Positions 6,988 through 40,700 of a stretch of 64,000 bases of DNA are shown piece after piece (the stretch's first letter is position 1; each line of letters opens with the position of its first letter). Origin of the DNA: a phage; sequence record NC_111505.1; one strand, given 5' to 3'. The notes beneath the pieces are model-generated. The model saw only the letters and a program-made list of their open reading frames with translations, was not told where the DNA came from and made no database searches. The position numbers and the translations under genes are program-made.

Positions 6988-7178
6988 AAAACTTACGTTT
7001 TAACACTTATTACTACAACACTTTGAATGATTTGTATTATATTGTTCGAAGTAAAAGTCCTGAAACAGTACTATTCTGCCGCGAACCTTTCAAAGGTGAG
7101 GAAGTAGAGTCTGAAATGAATGTTAGCCATATTACCTCTTTGTTGCTCTCTGGCACAATGGAAGAAGCAATATTCTAA
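6984..7178 (+). CDS. hypothetical protein (64 aa)
   Basis: ATG with AAGGGGA SD; ATGA overlap. Confidence 0.55.
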   Translation: MKNLRFNTYYYNTLNDLYYIVRSKSPETVLFCREPFKGEEVESEMNVSHITSLLLSGTMEEAIF

Positions 7179-9267: not shown

Positions 9268-9543
9268 ATGGTGTCTTTCATTTCCCACAAAATGTCTAAG
9301 CTGGAGCGTTTGCACCCCTCTGCCAACTATGCACGTGTGAGTGTAAAAGTTGAAAATGATCACCAGGAAGTCATGGCTTTTATTTTTGACAATTCTGGGA
9401 AAGAAGTTATCGCCAAAGCTAAAGGTAGCGATGCTTACGAGGCAACTGACCGTATGGTGGATGTTGCAGCACGCCAGTTGGCTAAATGCGGTGGAAAGAA
9501 AGGTAAGGGAAAAGGTAAAGTAAAGATTGACTTTTGGGATTGA
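9268..9543 (+). CDS. hpf: Ribosome hibernation factor (HPF/RaiA, S30AE family)-like, N-terminally disrupted
   Basis: KLE..., V.VKVE, ...G.D.Y.A.D...D.AARQL.K match HPF/RaiA; the homologous frame starts at ATG 9226 after SD AAGGAG but has TAA at codon 4 (9235-9237); track ORF starts at internal Met 9268. Confidence 0.45.
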   Translation: MVSFISHKMSKLERLHPSANYARVSVKVENDHQEVMAFIFDNSGKEVIAKAKGSDAYEATDRMVDVAARQLAKCGGKKGKGKGKVKIDFWD

Positions 9544-9552
9544 GGTGCTACA

Positions 9553-9654
9553 ATGGGTATAATTAAGAAATTAGTCCCAAATGTAGAGATTGCATGCTTT
9601 GAAATTATGTTTGCAATCGCAGTTGTAGTTAATGTGTTAGGTTACGGCTATTAA
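9553..9654 (+). CDS. candidate 33-aa hydrophobic peptide
   Basis: ATG with GAGGTG SD; MGIIKKLVPNVEIACFEIMFAIAVVVNVLGYGY. Confidence 0.3.
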   Translation: MGIIKKLVPNVEIACFEIMFAIAVVVNVLGYGY

Positions 9655-15925: not shown

Positions 15926-16096
15926 CAGTTCTGCCACGATTTTGACCTGACCTACAGGAGCGCTGCCAGGCGGACGAAATGGGAATACTTCTCATTCTTA
16001 TAACAATTCTCAAATATCAAGGCAGTGAGGCAAATTAATAGGCGAGGCCGTTCACACAGTGGCGCAACATTTGCAAGCTATTTTGTGTGGATGAAT

Positions 16097-16130
16097 GAGA
16101 ATACTTATCATTGTGAGAATCGTTATCATT
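16097..16130. repeat. Tandem 16-mer GAGAATNNTTATCATT (2 copies, 2-nt spacer)
   Basis: 16097-16112 and 16115-16130; the same 16-mer recurs at 27733-27748 and 27869-27884. Confidence 0.55.
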
Positions 16131-16534
16131 ACGGGCAATTTAACATAATACCCATTATGCGCACCACTGGCGATACATACATGGATTGATAACATGGGTT
16201 ACTGTTTACGCATATAACAATTGTATTTCTTATTATTTGTGGGGGATATAGTTAGCGACCAATAGATTAGATATTAACCTGCAGACTTCTGACCGTCCAG
16301 ACGTCTAAACGCCCACACAACAAGGGTTATACATACACTCCTGAATGTAAACAGGGCAGCAAAAATGCTACCATACCAGATTGTAAATTTTCCATGCAGC
16401 ACTTGACAAAGAGGAGAAAAACTTGTCTGACACAATGTCACACAATATGCCATAATCTGACACCTTATACACTTTCGACACAATAACGACTGTTATTATT
16501 TCATGTTTCATTGTTCACGTGCAGATTGTTCCCA

Positions 16535-16890
16535 CATAGACTGTTTACGCCCGGATAGTTTACACCTTGACAGTTTACACAAAGATGATAAGCCATGACA
16601 TTCGTTTGCATGATAACACCCTTGAGACGAGGGCCATGCTCCCGAGTTTAACAATTAACAAGATAACAATTGACAGGCCGACAATTAACAAGTTAACAAT
16701 ATATGACATAATATAAAAGCAGGGCAACTATTAGCAGATCATAGTTGCCTTGCTTATTATGTCATGATTAACTGAATACAAGGCAACTATGATCTGATCA
16801 ATAGTTTGCAGGCAAACTATCACGGGGGTGATGGTTACTGCTTTTATATTATGTCGCGACTCCGTCGCGCCATGACATTCGTTTGCATAG
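16535..16890. repeat. Cluster of direct repeats and palindromes (operator/iteron-like)
   Basis: Three (C/T)(T/A)GTTTACRC repeats at 16541-16582; CATGACATTCGTTTGCAT twice (16594, 16871); ACAATTAACAAG twice; two palindromes GCAACTAT-N9/10-ATAGTT(T)GC with GATC cores (16724-16748, 16783-16809). Confidence 0.5.
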
Positions 16891-19240: not shown

Positions 19241-19428
19241 ATTTTACCCCCTATGTAGTCCGGTCGGTTTTTCTCTGTCATACGCTTAAGCAATTCTTGC
19301 ATGTTGCTTATGGCTTGTAGTGTATCCTCTTCAAGGGATGAATCAAGATAATCAGGATCATTCTTCACCTTGCAATGATTATGATAACGCAGTACCGCCA
19401 GTACTTTTTTAACTTCTTCCGCTGTCAT
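19237..19428 (-). CDS. hypothetical protein (63 aa)
   Basis: ATG start; ATGA overlap with downstream gene; weak SD. Confidence 0.4.
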   Translation of the reverse strand: MTAEEVKKVLAVLRYHNHCKVKNDPDYLDSSLEEDTLQAISNMQELLKRMTEKNRPDYIGGKI

Positions 19429-19436
19429 TATCGCGC

Positions 19437-19571
19437 CTAAAACAATGAGTTAATATATAACACCAGATCGCTGACTACCAGGACAACATTAATCAGCACA
19501 TACCTAACCATAAAGGGAAAGATCGCCAACATTGCCGCCACGATCCCCATGGTAATAATTATCTTTCTCAT
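19437..19571 (-). CDS. candidate 44-aa membrane peptide
   Basis: MRKIIITMGIVAAMLAIFPFMV...; ATG 5 nt after the upstream stop; no clear SD. Confidence 0.3.
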   Translation of the reverse strand: MRKIIITMGIVAAMLAIFPFMVRYVLINVVLVVSDLVLYINSLF

Positions 19572-21736: not shown

Positions 21737-22087
21737 TTATTTTGCATTCTTTCCTATATTTCCGCCACGGTACCAGCGTTTACGGTGAAAATGGTAATAA
21801 TCACCGTCGGCATTGAACATCAAATGATTTTCAATAACCAGCTTACGAAGGTGTGCCGGATCTTGTTCCATTCTTGCCAGATTCCGGCGGCTGTTACGTA
21901 GGCGGATAAATTCCATATTCAGGCCGTTGATTGCAGTATGGATGTCAAAGTAACCACCTTTGAGACGTTCACGCATAGCGTTAAGCTCGACACGGTATAC
22001 AGATTTCTCACAAATCAAGGTATTAGCCAGGGCGCGGACCTGGGCAAGGGGGTTAAGCTCGTTAAGGTAATATAGTTTGACTTTCAT
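21737..22087 (-). CDS. hypothetical basic protein (116 aa)
   Basis: ATG with AGGTGA SD; followed on the - strand by hairpins (21721-21736, 21677-21705). Confidence 0.6.
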   Translation of the reverse strand: MKVKLYYLNELNPLAQVRALANTLICEKSVYRVELNAMRERLKGGYFDIHTAINGLNMEFIRLRNSRRNLARMEQDPAHLRKLVIENHLMFNADGDYYHFHRKRWYRGGNIGKNAK

Positions 22088-27529: not shown

Positions 27530-27594
27530 TTTTGTACCTCCTCTTCAATTGTTACTATCCTATAGCATAGGCCCACCAGGCTGGCCCCGCCAGG

Positions 27595-27623
27595 TTGCAG
27601 CGGTTAGCGCATCAGGTTAGAAT
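27595..27623 (+). promoter_or_regulatory. Sigma70-like promoter (TTGCAG-N17-TAGAAT), + strand, followed by T10 run
   Basis: First of two tandem rightward promoters facing an ORF-free region. Confidence 0.5.
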
Positions 27624-27642
27624 TTTTTTTTTTTGAAAAGTG

Positions 27643-27671
27643 TTGACAGCGGCCCCGCCAGGTGGCACAAT
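27643..27671 (+). promoter_or_regulatory. Sigma70-like promoter (TTGACA-N17-CACAAT), + strand
   Basis: Consensus -35; weaker -10; directly upstream of structured element copy 1. Confidence 0.4.
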
Positions 27672-27675
27672 ATAC

Positions 27676-27750
27676 ATATCGAAAGGACGGCAGGCACCGG
27701 TGACGGGGGAGACAACCACCGGGGATGGGCGCTGCATGAAATGAGAACGA
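27676..27750 (+). ncRNA. Candidate small structured RNA / repeated element, copy 1
   Basis: No ORF; internal CCGGTG..CACCGG stem; conserved blocks GGGAGACAAYCACCGGGGRTG and GAGAAYGATTATCATT shared with copy 2. Confidence 0.25.
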
Positions 27751-27819
27751 TTATCATTATCGTCTAAAAATTTATGCAAAAACTTCTTGCTTTCTTTGTC
27801 CTGTGTGATACTATAATAA

Positions 27820-27886
27820 CAAGCCGGGGCAGTAGGGGCCGGGAGACAATCACCGGGGGTGCCCGTTATTCTGCAAACGAGAATGA
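27820..27886 (+). ncRNA. Candidate small structured RNA / repeated element, copy 2
   Basis: Preceded by promoter-like TTGCTT..TATAAT (27787-27817); same conserved blocks as copy 1. Confidence 0.25.
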
Positions 27887-28009
27887 TTATCATTCAAAAT
27901 TCTAAATGATAACTTTTCGCATTTCATAAATTTAGTTAGCATGCTAATTACCTACCGTGACAATTCTATATAAAATAATACCTCCTAAAATATTCCCATA
28001 TAGAAATTT

Positions 28010-28185
28010 TAAAAATCCATTTCTGAAAACGAAAAATCGATTTCGTCCCCAAAAATTTCAGGTCGAGCGCCGGAACGATTCCCAGAAAATCTGATTCAGA
28101 AAACGAAAAACAGATCGAGTACCGAAAAATTTATCGAGAAAAATTTTCAGAAAATTCAATCTTTGAAACGAAAAACAGATCGAGT
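28010..28185. repeat. AT-rich iteron array (3 copies of GAAAACGAAAAACAGATCGAGTAC-like 23-mer with GATC cores)
   Basis: Copies at about 28019, 28094, 28160 (66-75 bp spacing); flanking ATCCATTT repeats at 28011, 28371, 28391, 28453. Confidence 0.45.
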
Positions 28186-37480: not shown

Positions 37481-37756
37481 CAATAGTTCAGGTAGGTCGT
37501 TAAGCTACCCCGCACCATTACGTGCATAGCCATACGTTTTCACGTAGGATCGGACCATCTCATATTCCTATGATAAGCAACCACAGGAATCCTCCCATTT
37601 CGACCGCACTTGCTGGTCTACTTCCTTTCGGAATGGCCTCTGAGCGTTCGCTCTTTTGAGCGCTTCGTTGCGGATTACCTTGCCATAAGGTTTAGGCTTC
37701 CCGCAGTTAAAGAGGTTATTCGACATAGATTACTCTATGAAGCCACAATGTTATTT
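37481..37756 (-). mobile_element. ORF-less group I intron (IA2-like) interrupting the DNA polymerase gene at motif C
   Basis: 276 nt between pol ORF stop and 3' exon; 5' exon ends ...CAU (U), intron ends ...CUAUUG (G); GUGG near intron 5' end can pair with exon CCAU (P1, G-U at splice site); 3' part ...GGGGUAGCUUAACGACCUACCUGAACUAUUG resembles the T4 td intron 3' end as I recall it. Confidence 0.65.
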
Positions 37757-40700
37757 ATGGTAATAAATAATACGACGAACACCTTCATCGTACCACCCAC
37801 GCTTCACCATTTGGTGGTGCATGAGTATCCCAACTAAGTCACACAACGATGCACCACCATTTTGTTGGTATGCATTAAGTAAAGAGTGTTTAGATCGAGT
37901 CCAGATGGCATGACCATCAAAAGAGTAGATAAACTTCTTACCTGTTGCTTCCCAGAATTTCTCCAGATCCTCTTTGCGCCCCTTAAGACCAGGGTTGGCA
38001 TCCCAAAGCGCATCGATTACCTTTTGCCCTAACTCTGGGGAGATATCCAGCATGTCTGCAACTTTATCTTTTTGTGCCCCGTACATAACACCGTACGTGA
38101 CAGGCTTACCATCGTTACGGGAAATCTCCTTGCCTGCTACAGAAGAGTAAGCTTTGGCGTTATTACAGTTACCGCACACTGCCACTTTACCATTCCTTCT
38201 CACAATGATTGCTCCAGAAGGGACGGTAACGCAATAAACCAAAGAACCACTCACCTCGACAGACTCTTTAGATAGTGTCAGCAACCCTGCTCTCTGTTTG
38301 CTACCAATCGTGATTCTGTGCTGTACGGAACGACCTTTTTTGTGAATCGCCACCGTATTATTCCGTAAACCACACTGAGTAGCCAGCGCAGACACAACCT
38401 CTACAGATTTCTTCCTGCACTCGGCCTGAGAGTAGTAGGCAACTTTTCCACCTTCGGAAGATACCCACCCGTCCCAGTTAGATAAAGAAGCTATAAACAG
38501 GTTTTTAGATTCTTTATCAAGGTCCATCAGGTTGTAGGTGAAATCCTTATTGCTGTCCAAAAACTCAAATACCCAGGACGGAACGTGGAATTGGAACCTT
38601 CTCGCCAGTAAGCCCCCTTTTGTGGTTTTCCCGCCCTGCTCTACATAACTAAGGCTTAGAGCAGAAAAAGTATCTAAAAGCGTTGCAACTTTTCTGCCCT
38701 TCCCGACCTGAATCCTGCACACGATGCTGCCGTCCTTATTTGTATGCAAGTGTCCATCATCGTGAATAGCAATAAGCAAATTAATCTGGGCAGGAGATAA
38801 GGTTGTATTCCCATAAAACTCTGCCGCATGGATAAACCTTCTTCCTGAATTAGACCCTTTACCTGCTTTCAGGTCTTTTGCCAAATCTTCAAACAATTTA
38901 TTGCTTCTGTGATCCACGGTCAGCATCCTGTGTTGATCTGTAACCATAAAATCCACACCGCTGTTGTGGAAATGATACATATCCCCACAATAACCACGCT
39001 TAACGTAATTTAATGGTGTAACAAGGTTCATCGACGAGGTGTTGTGATCGTACTGGAACACTTGTGTTCCCGGATCAAGATCTTCAAACCTCACCCACCC
39101 TTTCTCCGTGAGAATTTGTGTATCTCCTGAATAACAGTGTGCATCGCCGTTACTTACAACATCATAATACAAGCCGTTGTCGAACTCAAAGGCACCCCAA
39201 GCCCCGATAAGCTGCTCTAAGTTGGACCCGTCAATACCGATCTCAAAGTATCCTGGAGGAACGCCCCACAGACTACGCATCTCTTTACCCATAACCACTT
39301 TAGGAGATGGTTTAGGCATGTTTGCACAAATACTGTGTTTCTGTCTGGAAGTGTTTGTCAATCCAGAACTTTTAGCAGGAAGCTTGTGGTCAATCTTCAG
39401 ACGTGGATGATTAAGAAGACCAGTATCAACCTTATCCTCCTTGATTGGATCAAGTACCGATCTACGGTTTCGCAAGGATAACCACAAGACGATATCTTTA
39501 GCCATCTCTCCGTTCAACTTTTCAAGATTCGGACATAGGTGTCCAAACGTATCTTTCAGTTGCGGAGAAGTAATAAGCGCTCTGGCTTTTCTACGTATCT
39601 TCCCAAACACTTCCTTTTTAATCCTTTCTGAGTTAGGGAAGCTTCGGAACTTGTGCACGGTTGTCTGAAACTTAGCATCAGTTTTGTTCCAGAAGTTGAT
39701 AATTAGGTCACAATACTCTGACTCTAAAAGCTCGTCCATATATGCATATACTCGTGCATCAACATCAGCATCAGGCAGAGCTTTCTTCTTGCTGTCCTTG
39801 GTTACATCTTTAGTTCTCCACATTGTTGGGAGCCAACCAGCGCTGATCAAATATCGCTTAATATCGTCCTGGTTGCTGATCTTCATAGGTATCTTGCAGT
39901 CAGGCATCCGCTTCTGCTGCAGATCACTTATTGCCTGATCCATTAGTTCTTTAGGTAAAGGATGTGGTGTCGAGGTACCTTTAATATACCCCCTTAAGAA
40001 ATCAGCCATCTTATCGGGGTCTTTGCAGCCCATCTCTTCACACCATTTTATCCCCATTTTGCTGACATCTCCTGTGGAGGTAAAGGCTCGCTTAGGTGGG
40101 GCTTTGAATTCTAAAGCACTCATGTCCACAGGATAGCCAAGCTTGTCTTTTAACCATTTCCAACCGTTATTAGAGATTGTCCCATCTTGGTTAAACGGCT
40201 TTTCAGGGAACTTAGGCCGCTGAGACATTGATAGCTCTTTTAGAGGAAGTTGTGGTTCAACACGATCAGCGATCTCTTTCATCCACGCATCGCAGCGGTC
40301 ACGTAAAGCAATAGCCCCATCTATGTCGAAATACACACCCTGTCGAGCCTGCAGCTCCATCAGGAAATGCTGCAGCATGCCTCGGCGTAATGCATTCTTC
40401 CAGGTGATCTTCTTGAAGCCTTTCGGCTTCTCTTTGGCAGGATCGTACATAAAGTTCTGCATGTCAGATTTGCCGTAGAATACACCTTTTGATTCTGCTA
40501 CCAACTCCTTCCAGAGCAACTCCTGGATGATAACGTCCTCGAACACACGATCCACATACTTCCACAGCGGAAGCTCACGCCAGTCATCGATTTGAACTTT
40601 CTGGTTACCAAGGGCATAGCCCCATGCCATAAGGCCATGAGGCCCAACAGGTTGCATTTTCTTGGTAACTGGATTGAATACTGCGTCCGGACAACCTTTT

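Follow-up and report, generated by a model that had tools for sequence, protein, structure and literature searches.

A Fur-box-like dyad repeated in two non-coding control regions of an rV5-type coliphage

Why does one and the same 16-mer, GAGAAYNNTTATCATT, recur in two separate non-coding regions of a large E. coli phage, and what in the infected cell would recognise it? The original prediction, made on the 64,000 nucleotides of phage DNA analysed here (hereafter the window), took it for either a common DNA-binding protein site or a conserved RNA 3' element, and saw in its TTATCA a reminiscence of the DnaA box. Below, we consider these readings in turn, and subsequently the identity of the putative binder and what its binding would mean for the phage and its host.

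Two non-coding regions and their repeats

The window belongs to a Vequintavirus, that is, an rV5/FV3-like E. coli myovirus, and both of its non-coding regions are 90-98% identical to Vequintavirus genomes. Genes lie on the plus strand left of about 15.2 kb and on the minus strand from 17.5 kb to past 32 kb, so that region 1 (15.2-17.5 kb) forms the gap between converging transcription units; in the rV5 genome paper, where neither motif region is given a promoter or a terminator, it corresponds to a box labelled 'non-coding'. A gap between early genes of the minus strand forms region 2 (27.53-28.2 kb). The description of both regions as free of ORFs needs qualification here, as region 2 is spanned by a 93-codon ORF that is annotated in FV3 (FV3_00182). 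This ORF is probably spurious, since other genera lack it and since, in phage AlexBoehm, a natural deletion of 134 bp shifts its reading frame. Compared with the window, the AlexBoehm deletion (locus L169) took out 27707-27840 between two GGGAGACAA repeats, and with it unit 1, the box O1 and the promoter P2 (see the list below); hence, one unit and O1 are dispensable.

Four exact copies of GAGAAYNNTTATCATT were found on the plus strand, at 16097-16112, 16115-16130, 27743-27758 and 27879-27894. The tandem copies had been placed correctly from the outset, and the single copies of region 2 do exist, but start 10 bases further on than the predicted 27733 and 27869. If up to two mismatches are allowed, 8 matches are obtained against 1.45 expected (sd 1.15), a number reached in 0 of 100 shuffles, which confirms the enrichment of the motif over shuffled sequence. 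The 16-mer forms the centre of a longer, 19-bp dyad, AATGAKAAT-n-ATTMTCATT, i.e. AATGA(G/T)AAT-n-ATT(A/C)TCATT. A search of the window for the palindrome AATGAKAATNATTMTCATT gave 4 sites at up to two mismatches (0.0 expected, 60 shuffles) and 7 at up to three (0.2 expected), 6 of which fall within 15978-16130 and 27740-27923; in the complete FV3 genome (137 kb), 6 of 7 such sites likewise lie within the two homologous regions. Among these are copies that had escaped the original prediction, namely a weaker tandem pair at 15978/15996 and a third site of region 2 at 27905-27923. Spacing of the dyads is regular in the arrays of the window (18 bp and 29 bp), as compared to 26-36 bp elsewhere. The features of both regions are as follows, with the boxes named after the Fur box to which they are compared further below.

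Region 1
15978..15996, no strand assigned: weak Fur-type box AATGGGAATACTTCTCATT, first of the upstream tandem pair, 2 mismatches to AATGAKAATNATTMTCATT
15996..16014, no strand assigned: weak, degenerate partner site with core TTATAACAATTCTCA, 2 mismatches to the 15-bp core TGAKAATNATTMTCA
16094..16112, no strand assigned: Fur-type box AATGAGAATACTTATCATT, holding the 16-mer 16097-16112, 1 mismatch to the palindrome
16112..16130, no strand assigned: Fur-type box TGTGAGAATCGTTATCATT, holding the 16-mer 16115-16130, abutting the 16094 box at an 18-bp offset
16145..16173, minus strand: putative weak promoter-like site TCGCCA-17-TATTAT (9/12), just upstream of the 16130-16094 pair

Region 2
27612..27893, minus strand: 93-codon ORF spanning the region, annotated in FV3 as FV3_00182, probably spurious
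27643..27671, plus strand: P1, sigma-70-like promoter TTGACA-17-CACAAT (TG-extended) directed towards O1, 10/12 in the promoter scan
27685..27735, plus strand: GC-rich segment 1 (contains GGGAGACAACCACCGGGG) between P1 and O1, direct repeat of segment 2 (repeat family D2)
27740..27761, no strand assigned: O1, the strongest box, AATGAGAACGATTATCATT at 27740-27758; the minus strand from 27761 to 27743 reads GATAATGATAATCGTTCTC
27787..27817, plus strand: P2, promoter TTGCTT ... TACTAT/TATAAT directed towards O2 and O3, with conserved counterparts
27826..27868, plus strand: GC-rich segment 2 (GGGAGACAATCACCGGGGGTGCCCG) between P2 and O2, conserved with O2 across genera
27876..27897, no strand assigned: O2, AACGAGAATGATTATCATT with flanking CAA, the copy conserved across phage genera
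27899..27927, minus strand: putative weak promoter-like site ATGAAA-17-TAGAAT (9/12 in the scan), bracketed by O3 and O2
27905..27923, no strand assigned: O3, weaker box AATGATAACTTTTCGCATT, 3 mismatches, 29 bp from O2

The 15978 box is invariant in nine relatives and was detected as a direct repeat of 16094-16128 (repeat family D3), whereas the site at 15996 is a weak candidate partner, proposed purely from its register (the 18-bp offset of 16094/16112). The record of phage navn annotates a 36-bp repeat_region (locus positions 916-951) that, judged by position, apparently covers the 16094/16112 tandem pair.

Both regions also contain repeats of other kinds. In region 1, CCTGAAGAG occurs in at least 4 copies (15362, 15775, 15810, 15891) and is also present in the single merged intergenic region of phiTE, while CCCCTGCCCCGCCGG is found twice (15707 and 15852). 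Further downstream, three AACAATTRACA repeats with a 15-bp period (16650-16701) are followed at 16705-16855 by long perfect inverted repeats with 18-nt arms at 16705/16838 and 16735/16779. GGCCCCGCCAGG occurs twice in region 2, at 27583 and 27651, one copy lying within the P1 spacer. Just past O3, at 28012-28184, CGAAAAACAGATCGAG is repeated three times in an iteron-like manner and a 47-nt unit twice, accompanied by A5-T3/4 tracts; phiTE and GAP31 carry GATCGAGACCC-type repeats at the equivalent position. This zone suggests an origin-like region, and as both regions are rich in iteron-like repeats, an origin-like role of the neighbourhood is possible. The phiWec189 record (loci L006 and L172) begins at O1 and breaks off at the centre of O2, and a genome terminus or pac site was therefore considered here; this was rejected because the two record ends overlap by 147 bp, so that they represent an assembly break caused by the repeated motif and not a physical end. 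The record of EC152 starts about 250 bp away, within the iteron zone, and is uninformative in this respect. A link to the pseudo-ToxI locus of phiTE was dismissed as well, as that locus sits elsewhere in the phiTE genome, at 106.7 kb. Outside the two regions, a group I intron was detected on the minus strand at 37531-37766 (Rfam RF00028, 64.7 bits, E = 4e-14), in a part of the genome for which the FV3 annotation gives split DNA-polymerase fragments together with an HNH endonuclease.

DNA site, RNA element or DnaA box

As an IMG/VR pattern search returned one contig for region 1, homologues of that region were taken from GenBank relatives. TGAGAA and TTATCA, the two half-sites, are identical in all nine Vequintavirus relatives, whereas the central two to three bases vary (CG, AG, CT, CA). 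Fixed half-sites around a variable centre are the pattern expected of a dimeric protein site. At the level of individual boxes, the sole variable position of the 16094 box is next to the centre (T/C), the 16112 box has CG, AG, CT or CA at its centre with GAGAA and TTATCATT fixed, and O1 varies only at its centre (A/G); the left half of O3 is better (AATGAGAAC) in most relatives than in the window. Beyond the genus, O2 is the copy kept across Vequintavirinae genera and in Shewanella phage 1/4. Taken together, the dyad symmetry, the fixed half-sites with their variable centre and the regular arrays support the common DNA-binding protein site that had been proposed, for which a binder can be predicted (see below).

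Alternatively, the motif could act in RNA, as a 3' hairpin or terminator ending small transcripts from P1 and P2. In region 2, each copy does stand directly past a GC-rich transcribed segment, as implied by the earlier view that the copies close structured elements; however, no clear structure was apparent in these segments, single-sequence folds of both strands being unremarkable and no better than those of shuffled sequence (z = -1.8 for segment 1, which is not significant, and +0.6 for segment 2). GAAUGA could pair with UCAUUC in O2, and UUAUCAUU with AAUGAUAA between O2 and O3, but these pairs are invariant and hence offer no covariation. Furthermore, all four window copies have GAGAA on the left and TTATC on the right, which mispair in the would-be hairpin and break the main dyad; the half-site differences are thus non-compensatory, which argues for a DNA site and not for an RNA hairpin. 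RNAalifold recovered no supported consensus structure from 13 homologues, with 0 pairs showing compensatory change, Rfam gave no match for the motif regions at gathering or permissive thresholds, and a terminator scan found nothing at the motif sites, where a U-tract is absent. Finally, the copies of region 1 have no upstream promoter, and the same sequence is found in bacterial iron-gene promoters. With its hairpin broken and covariation, U-tract and Rfam match all wanting, the conserved RNA 3' element is not supported, and we regard an action of the motif in RNA as very improbable.

The units formed by promoter and GC-rich segment are of interest in their own right. Directed against the flanking genes, they are conserved in Vequintavirinae (27643-27875 in the window; 2290-2545 in locus L004 and 2280-2535 in locus L005), and Seunavirus and Certrevirus possess a different conserved first unit of about 100 nt (cgccaccccacggcgaaaaggcggggctaacgtaccgggc...ggtcggaaggtggatcgccggtagttcg). 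Neither an Rfam match nor a significant fold was found for these units; their G-rich transcripts might be either small RNAs or RNAs acting as primers or in R-loops.

The motif is AT-rich, as is intergenic DNA in general, and has TTATC in common with the DnaA box TTATNCACA (TTWTNCACA), so that it might be regarded as a chance resemblance among AT-rich intergenic sequences or as a degenerate DnaA box. Chance is refuted by the shuffle counts given above, both for the 16-mer and for the palindrome, and by the conservation of the motif across genera. As for the DnaA box, TTATCATTN agrees with it at about 5 of 9 positions, the motif is without the CACA half, and it has a dyad symmetry that the DnaA box has not. 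Exact DnaA boxes are not enriched either, with 4 in the 64-kb window against about 6 expected, a single one within the two regions and no cluster. A general co-occurrence with DnaA boxes was discarded too, given an enrichment of only 1.5-fold overall near boxes. The resemblance of TTATCA to the DnaA box thus dissolved on closer comparison, and the probability that chance or a DnaA box explains the motif is, in our view, negligible. A far closer counterpart, which had gone unrecognised in the original prediction, is the Fur box.

Likeness to the Fur box and the candidate binder

The Fur box of E. coli has been described as the 19-bp sequence GATAATGATAATCATTATC or, equivalently, as two overlapping 7-1-7 repeats TGATAATnATTATCA. 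O1 (read on the minus strand as GATAATGATAATCGTTCTC) agrees with the 19-mer at 17 of 19 positions, O2 at 15 and the region-1 copies, including the 16094 box, at 14, and all four copies of the 16-mer are at most two mismatches away from the 7-1-7 repeat (TGATAATNATTATCA). A matrix built solely from 10 published natural iron boxes assigned scores of 21.9 to O1, 17.7 to O2, and 11.9 and 11.6 to the copies of region 1 (11.6 being that of the 16094 box), compared with 8.6-22.6 for the natural boxes themselves and maxima of 11-15.6 for shuffled sequence. Hence, O1 and O2 score above every shuffle, level with the best natural boxes; the region-1 copies lie inside the natural range, not above the shuffles, and by themselves make no call over background. 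Three further matches among the minus-strand early genes (19551-19569, 21787-21805 and 19347-19365; matrix scores 15.5, 14.4 and 13.2; 14-15 of 19 positions of the consensus) may be due to chance, as their scores are within the shuffle range.

All four exact copies of the 16-mer share one orientation and have G where the E. coli consensus has T. The aerobactin iucA promoter is a classical Fur-repressed promoter. E. coli plasmids with AATGAGAATCATTAT 20 bp ahead of iucA number in the hundreds; this box, which is also present in the published iron-box list, carries GAGAAT, and the recurrent G (GAGAAT instead of GATAAT) is therefore not foreign to E. coli Fur. An independent test was provided by distant relatives of the phage, which often show the motif in perfectly palindromic form, AATGAGAATGATTCTCATT. 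More than 120 bacterial genomes contain the perfect palindrome AATGAGAATNATTCTCATT, and there ORFs starting within 120 bp of it encode Fe(III)-type solute-binding proteins (9), TonB-dependent receptors (8), FecI-like ECF sigma factors (8), ZnuA/SitA (6), FUR (6), FTR1 (3) and FeoA (2), a set typical of a Fur regulon. A blastn comparison of the region with E. coli chromosomes, run with a short query and a strict filter, gave no meaningful match.

Among phages, the spread of the dyad is wide. Distant blastn matches to region 2 comprise other Vequintavirinae genera and Shewanella phage 1/4, and are confined to 27839-27923 of the window, that is, GC-rich segment 2, O2 and O3; all of them (Seunavirus, Certrevirus and Mydovirus; phages of Klebsiella, Salmonella, Erwinia, Serratia and Shewanella) centre on O2. 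These distant relatives have a conserved plus-strand sigma-70 promoter, followed 58-60 nt after its -10 by O2, and further boxes often at 29-bp intervals after it (a run of at least 4 in phiTE, two in GAP31); the 29-bp spacing of O2 and O3 is also seen in GAP31, phiTE and locus L129. Several Vequintavirinae genera retain one box only, which is O2. In addition, unrelated viral contigs hold arrays of 2-8 boxes with periods of 26-36 bp, and perfect boxes were found in at least 120 viral contigs, 36% of them in arrays and 88% intergenic; the T5-like phage SP01 (see below) is among these contigs.

Which protein, then, would bind these arrays? Conceivably, the palindrome is the operator of a phage-encoded protein with Fur-like specificity, for instance a repressor acting early or a protein of replication origin or partition; in a control region resembling an origin, the arrays would then seed the assembly of a nucleoprotein complex of the phage. 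Such a protein would fit the consistent G/C at a symmetric position and the GCGAAT variants of the phage sites, and the shared orientation of all four copies with their G for T could reflect a binder with its own specificity. Moreover, both regions are dense in iteron-like repeats (the threefold CGAAAAACAGATCGAG, the 47-nt repeat and the AACAATT repeats of 15-bp period), and arrays lie beside DnaA-box clusters in T5 and some unrelated contigs. However, the 1.5-fold enrichment of DnaA boxes near the dyad is absent in the window, and no Pfam family or BLAST protein cluster is common near the arrays of 55 array-bearing viral loci (up to about 14 kb of flank per contig), nor did a Pfam scan of 50 ORFs near arrays reveal a shared family. 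No Fur homologue was found in the window or in FV3, and FV3 has no homologue of the DNA-binding T5 protein A2 or of its partner A1, so that a phage-encoded Fur or T5 A1/A2 were rejected as shared binders; a small, divergent or distant phage-encoded binder could have been missed by BLAST and Pfam within the flanks covered. The identical palindrome, furthermore, marks Fur-regulon genes in bacteria, and to assume a phage protein that keeps one specificity from Demerecviridae and Vequintavirinae to phages of Aeromonas and Shewanella, with no detectable conservation of its sequence, is less parsimonious than to assume a universally conserved protein of the host. We thus consider a phage-encoded binder quite improbable.

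A host factor is the more economical choice, because the array-bearing groups share hosts or the Gram-negative Fur consensus but no candidate phage protein. On the strength of these sequence comparisons, we propose that the 19-bp dyad is a Fur-family-type site and that host Fur-Fe2+ is its likely binder in this E. coli phage, a proposal to which we attach somewhat better than even confidence. The occurrence of arrays in the rV5-like phage, T5 and others suggests that virulent phages may recruit the iron regulator of their host.

One variant half-site, AATGCGAAT, was encountered repeatedly, at 7038-7134 of locus L140, at 668-692 of the T5-like phage SP01 (locus L291), at about 2570 of locus L004 and at 27905-27923 of the window, with arrays containing it in L140, SP01 and phiTE; perfect palindromes AATGCGAATGATTCGCATT alternate there with AATGAGAAT boxes. 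As AATGCGAAT departs from Fur at positions that distinguish Fur, PerR and Zur in B. subtilis, a second binder is possible, and the AATGCGAATnATTCGCATT variant might involve a second regulator.

Predicted consequences and comparison with known systems

Two clusters of boxes stand in the control regions of the window, four at 15978-16130, arranged as two abutting pairs, and three at 27740-27923. In an iron-replete infected cell, Fur dimers would be expected to occupy these arrays and would probably oligomerise along them, the most likely local effect being an iron-dependent block or repression of transcription across the boxes. In region 2, P1 and P2 fire against the flanking genes, with the boxes about 55-100 nt downstream of them. 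P1 is invariant among rV5-like relatives and its putative start site is some 60-80 nt upstream of O1; counterparts of P2 (e.g. TTGCAA-17-TATATT) are kept across genera although the spacers diverge, and 58-60 nt separate the P2 -10 from O2 in the window as they do in GAP31 and phiTE. The promoter-like hits of region 2 as such are in no excess over shuffles (3 vs 2.1). Fur might act at the boxes as an iron-dependent roadblock to the short plus-strand transcripts of P1 and P2, and would also repress any minus-strand initiation between O3 and O1. The promoter-like sites that overlap boxes are weak ones of the minus strand (27927..27899 and 16173..16145) and are not conserved across genera: the hexamers of the former are not conserved beyond rV5-like phages, and the latter is invariant in relatives, as is its whole neighbourhood. 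Another weak minus-strand site, TTGCAT-N18-GATAAT, overlies O1. In the window only, these sites are bracketed or followed by boxes, a geometry that would suit classical Fur repression.

A global effect would be unavoidable if the sites bind Fur, in that replication would multiply the seven boxes of each genome, which would thereby divert Fur from promoters of the host. Titration of Fur by multicopy Fur boxes is an established effect, known from the Fur titration assay (FURTA), and would be expected of any DNA that carries seven good Fur boxes and replicates to high copy number. One may go further and suppose that the arrays serve mainly as a sponge and that adjacent phage promoters need not be regulated at all. 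The replicated boxes, numbering hundreds to thousands and of high affinity, would then titrate Fur, derepress the iron-starvation regulon of the host (uptake, RyhB iron sparing, NrdHIEF) and thereby feed the iron-dependent ribonucleotide reductases of the phage, of which FV3 encodes both an aerobic and an anaerobic one. This would agree with arrays of 2-8 boxes at variable spacing in non-coding DNA, without overlap with conserved promoters, and with their presence in virulent phages of several unrelated groups. As rV5-type phages appear, according to the rV5 paper, to rely on unmodified host RNA polymerase throughout, the promoters of the host might remain responsive. Nevertheless, several Vequintavirinae genera keep O2 alone, with a constant distance of 58-60 nt to a conserved promoter; this looks like local regulation and not like bulk titration, and AlexBoehm tolerates the loss of O1. 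A role chiefly as a sponge, the main rival of our proposal, is unlikely in our judgement; occupancy by host Fur may control transcription locally, titrate Fur, or both.

To date, phage-borne Fur boxes are known only ahead of iron-related cargo genes of temperate phages, which would make arrays in the non-coding DNA of virulent phages new. In the literature that we searched, neither Fur boxes in the non-coding DNA of a virulent phage nor a link between the T5 array and Fur had been reported, and a natural phage-borne Fur decoy was not described. If our proposal is true, lytic phages would read or manipulate the iron status of their host. This would bear on phage therapy and on how phages behave in the gut, where iron is limited.

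A Fur box stands at the stx1 promoter, a prophage cargo gene. On lambdoid coliphages, host Fur boxes have also been described ahead of sitABCD cargo (PMC6969025). Common to these cases and ours is that host Fur boxes are carried by phage DNA; in contrast, the cargo boxes are single, located at iron-related cargo promoters of temperate phages and of service to the lysogen, whereas the window has arrays in non-coding control regions of a strictly virulent phage, and no iron-related gene was found in the neighbourhood of either region. FURTA is similar in that multiple copies of the Fur box are present on replicating DNA, but is a laboratory artefact of plasmids. With the E. coli Fur box and the iucA operator, the phage boxes share dyad, length and half-site, and the offset of 18 bp between abutting boxes, equal to three hexamers, agrees with the periodicity by hexamers seen in extended Fur operators. 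They differ in that they control no iron gene, sit in long stretches of non-coding DNA in a virulent phage and overlap no conserved -35 or -10, and in that the region-1 copies are moderate matches.

The closest parallel is offered by T5 and its relatives. To our knowledge, the injection-stop repeats of T5 have had no assigned function since the 1980s. In T5 (AY587007.1; locus L292, 9468-9637), boxes are found at 9473, 9508, 9577 and 9612, forming an array at 9473-9630, and that at 9577, AATGAGAATCATTATCAT T, matches the 19-bp motif perfectly. These boxes coincide with copies 1-4 of 'direct repeat C' and with palindromes E-I in the untranslated Repeat Region 3, and the array adjoins paired DnaA boxes and spans 9618, the calculated shear point of first-step transfer. 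A preprint on this region (10.1101/866236) describes the repeats as conserved and without assigned function, and the whole word 'Fur' is absent from it. The T5-like Salmonella phage SP01 (NC_047859.1) has at least 7 boxes at 500-692, which recur about every 35 bp; TTAAAAAGCGG follows each of them, and DnaA boxes come next. Its boxes include AATGATAATCATTATCATT. We entertain, tentatively and as an unlikely reading, that the direct repeats C and palindromes at the T5 injection stop are Fur-binding arrays as well, whose occupancy would couple the programme of the phage (transcription early or at the origin, or the pause in T5 DNA entry) to the iron status of the host, or would act as a natural Fur decoy that shifts the host to an iron-acquisition mode; if true, this would give a concrete identity to part of the injection-stop region.

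In either system, a large virulent coliphage carries arrays of the same 19-bp motif in DNA that is conserved but untranslated, the arrays of T5 and T5-like phages having A-rich linkers. However, the T5 array lies beside eight paired DnaA boxes, in the long terminal repeat and at the stop of first-step transfer, whereas the rV5-type genome is circularly permuted and lacks both a DnaA-box cluster and an A1/A2 homologue. Because rV5 genomes are circularly permuted, a role in stopping injection as in T5 is not the function common to both. Lastly, the boxes follow each other at about 35 bp in T5-like phages, but at 18 or 29 bp in the window.
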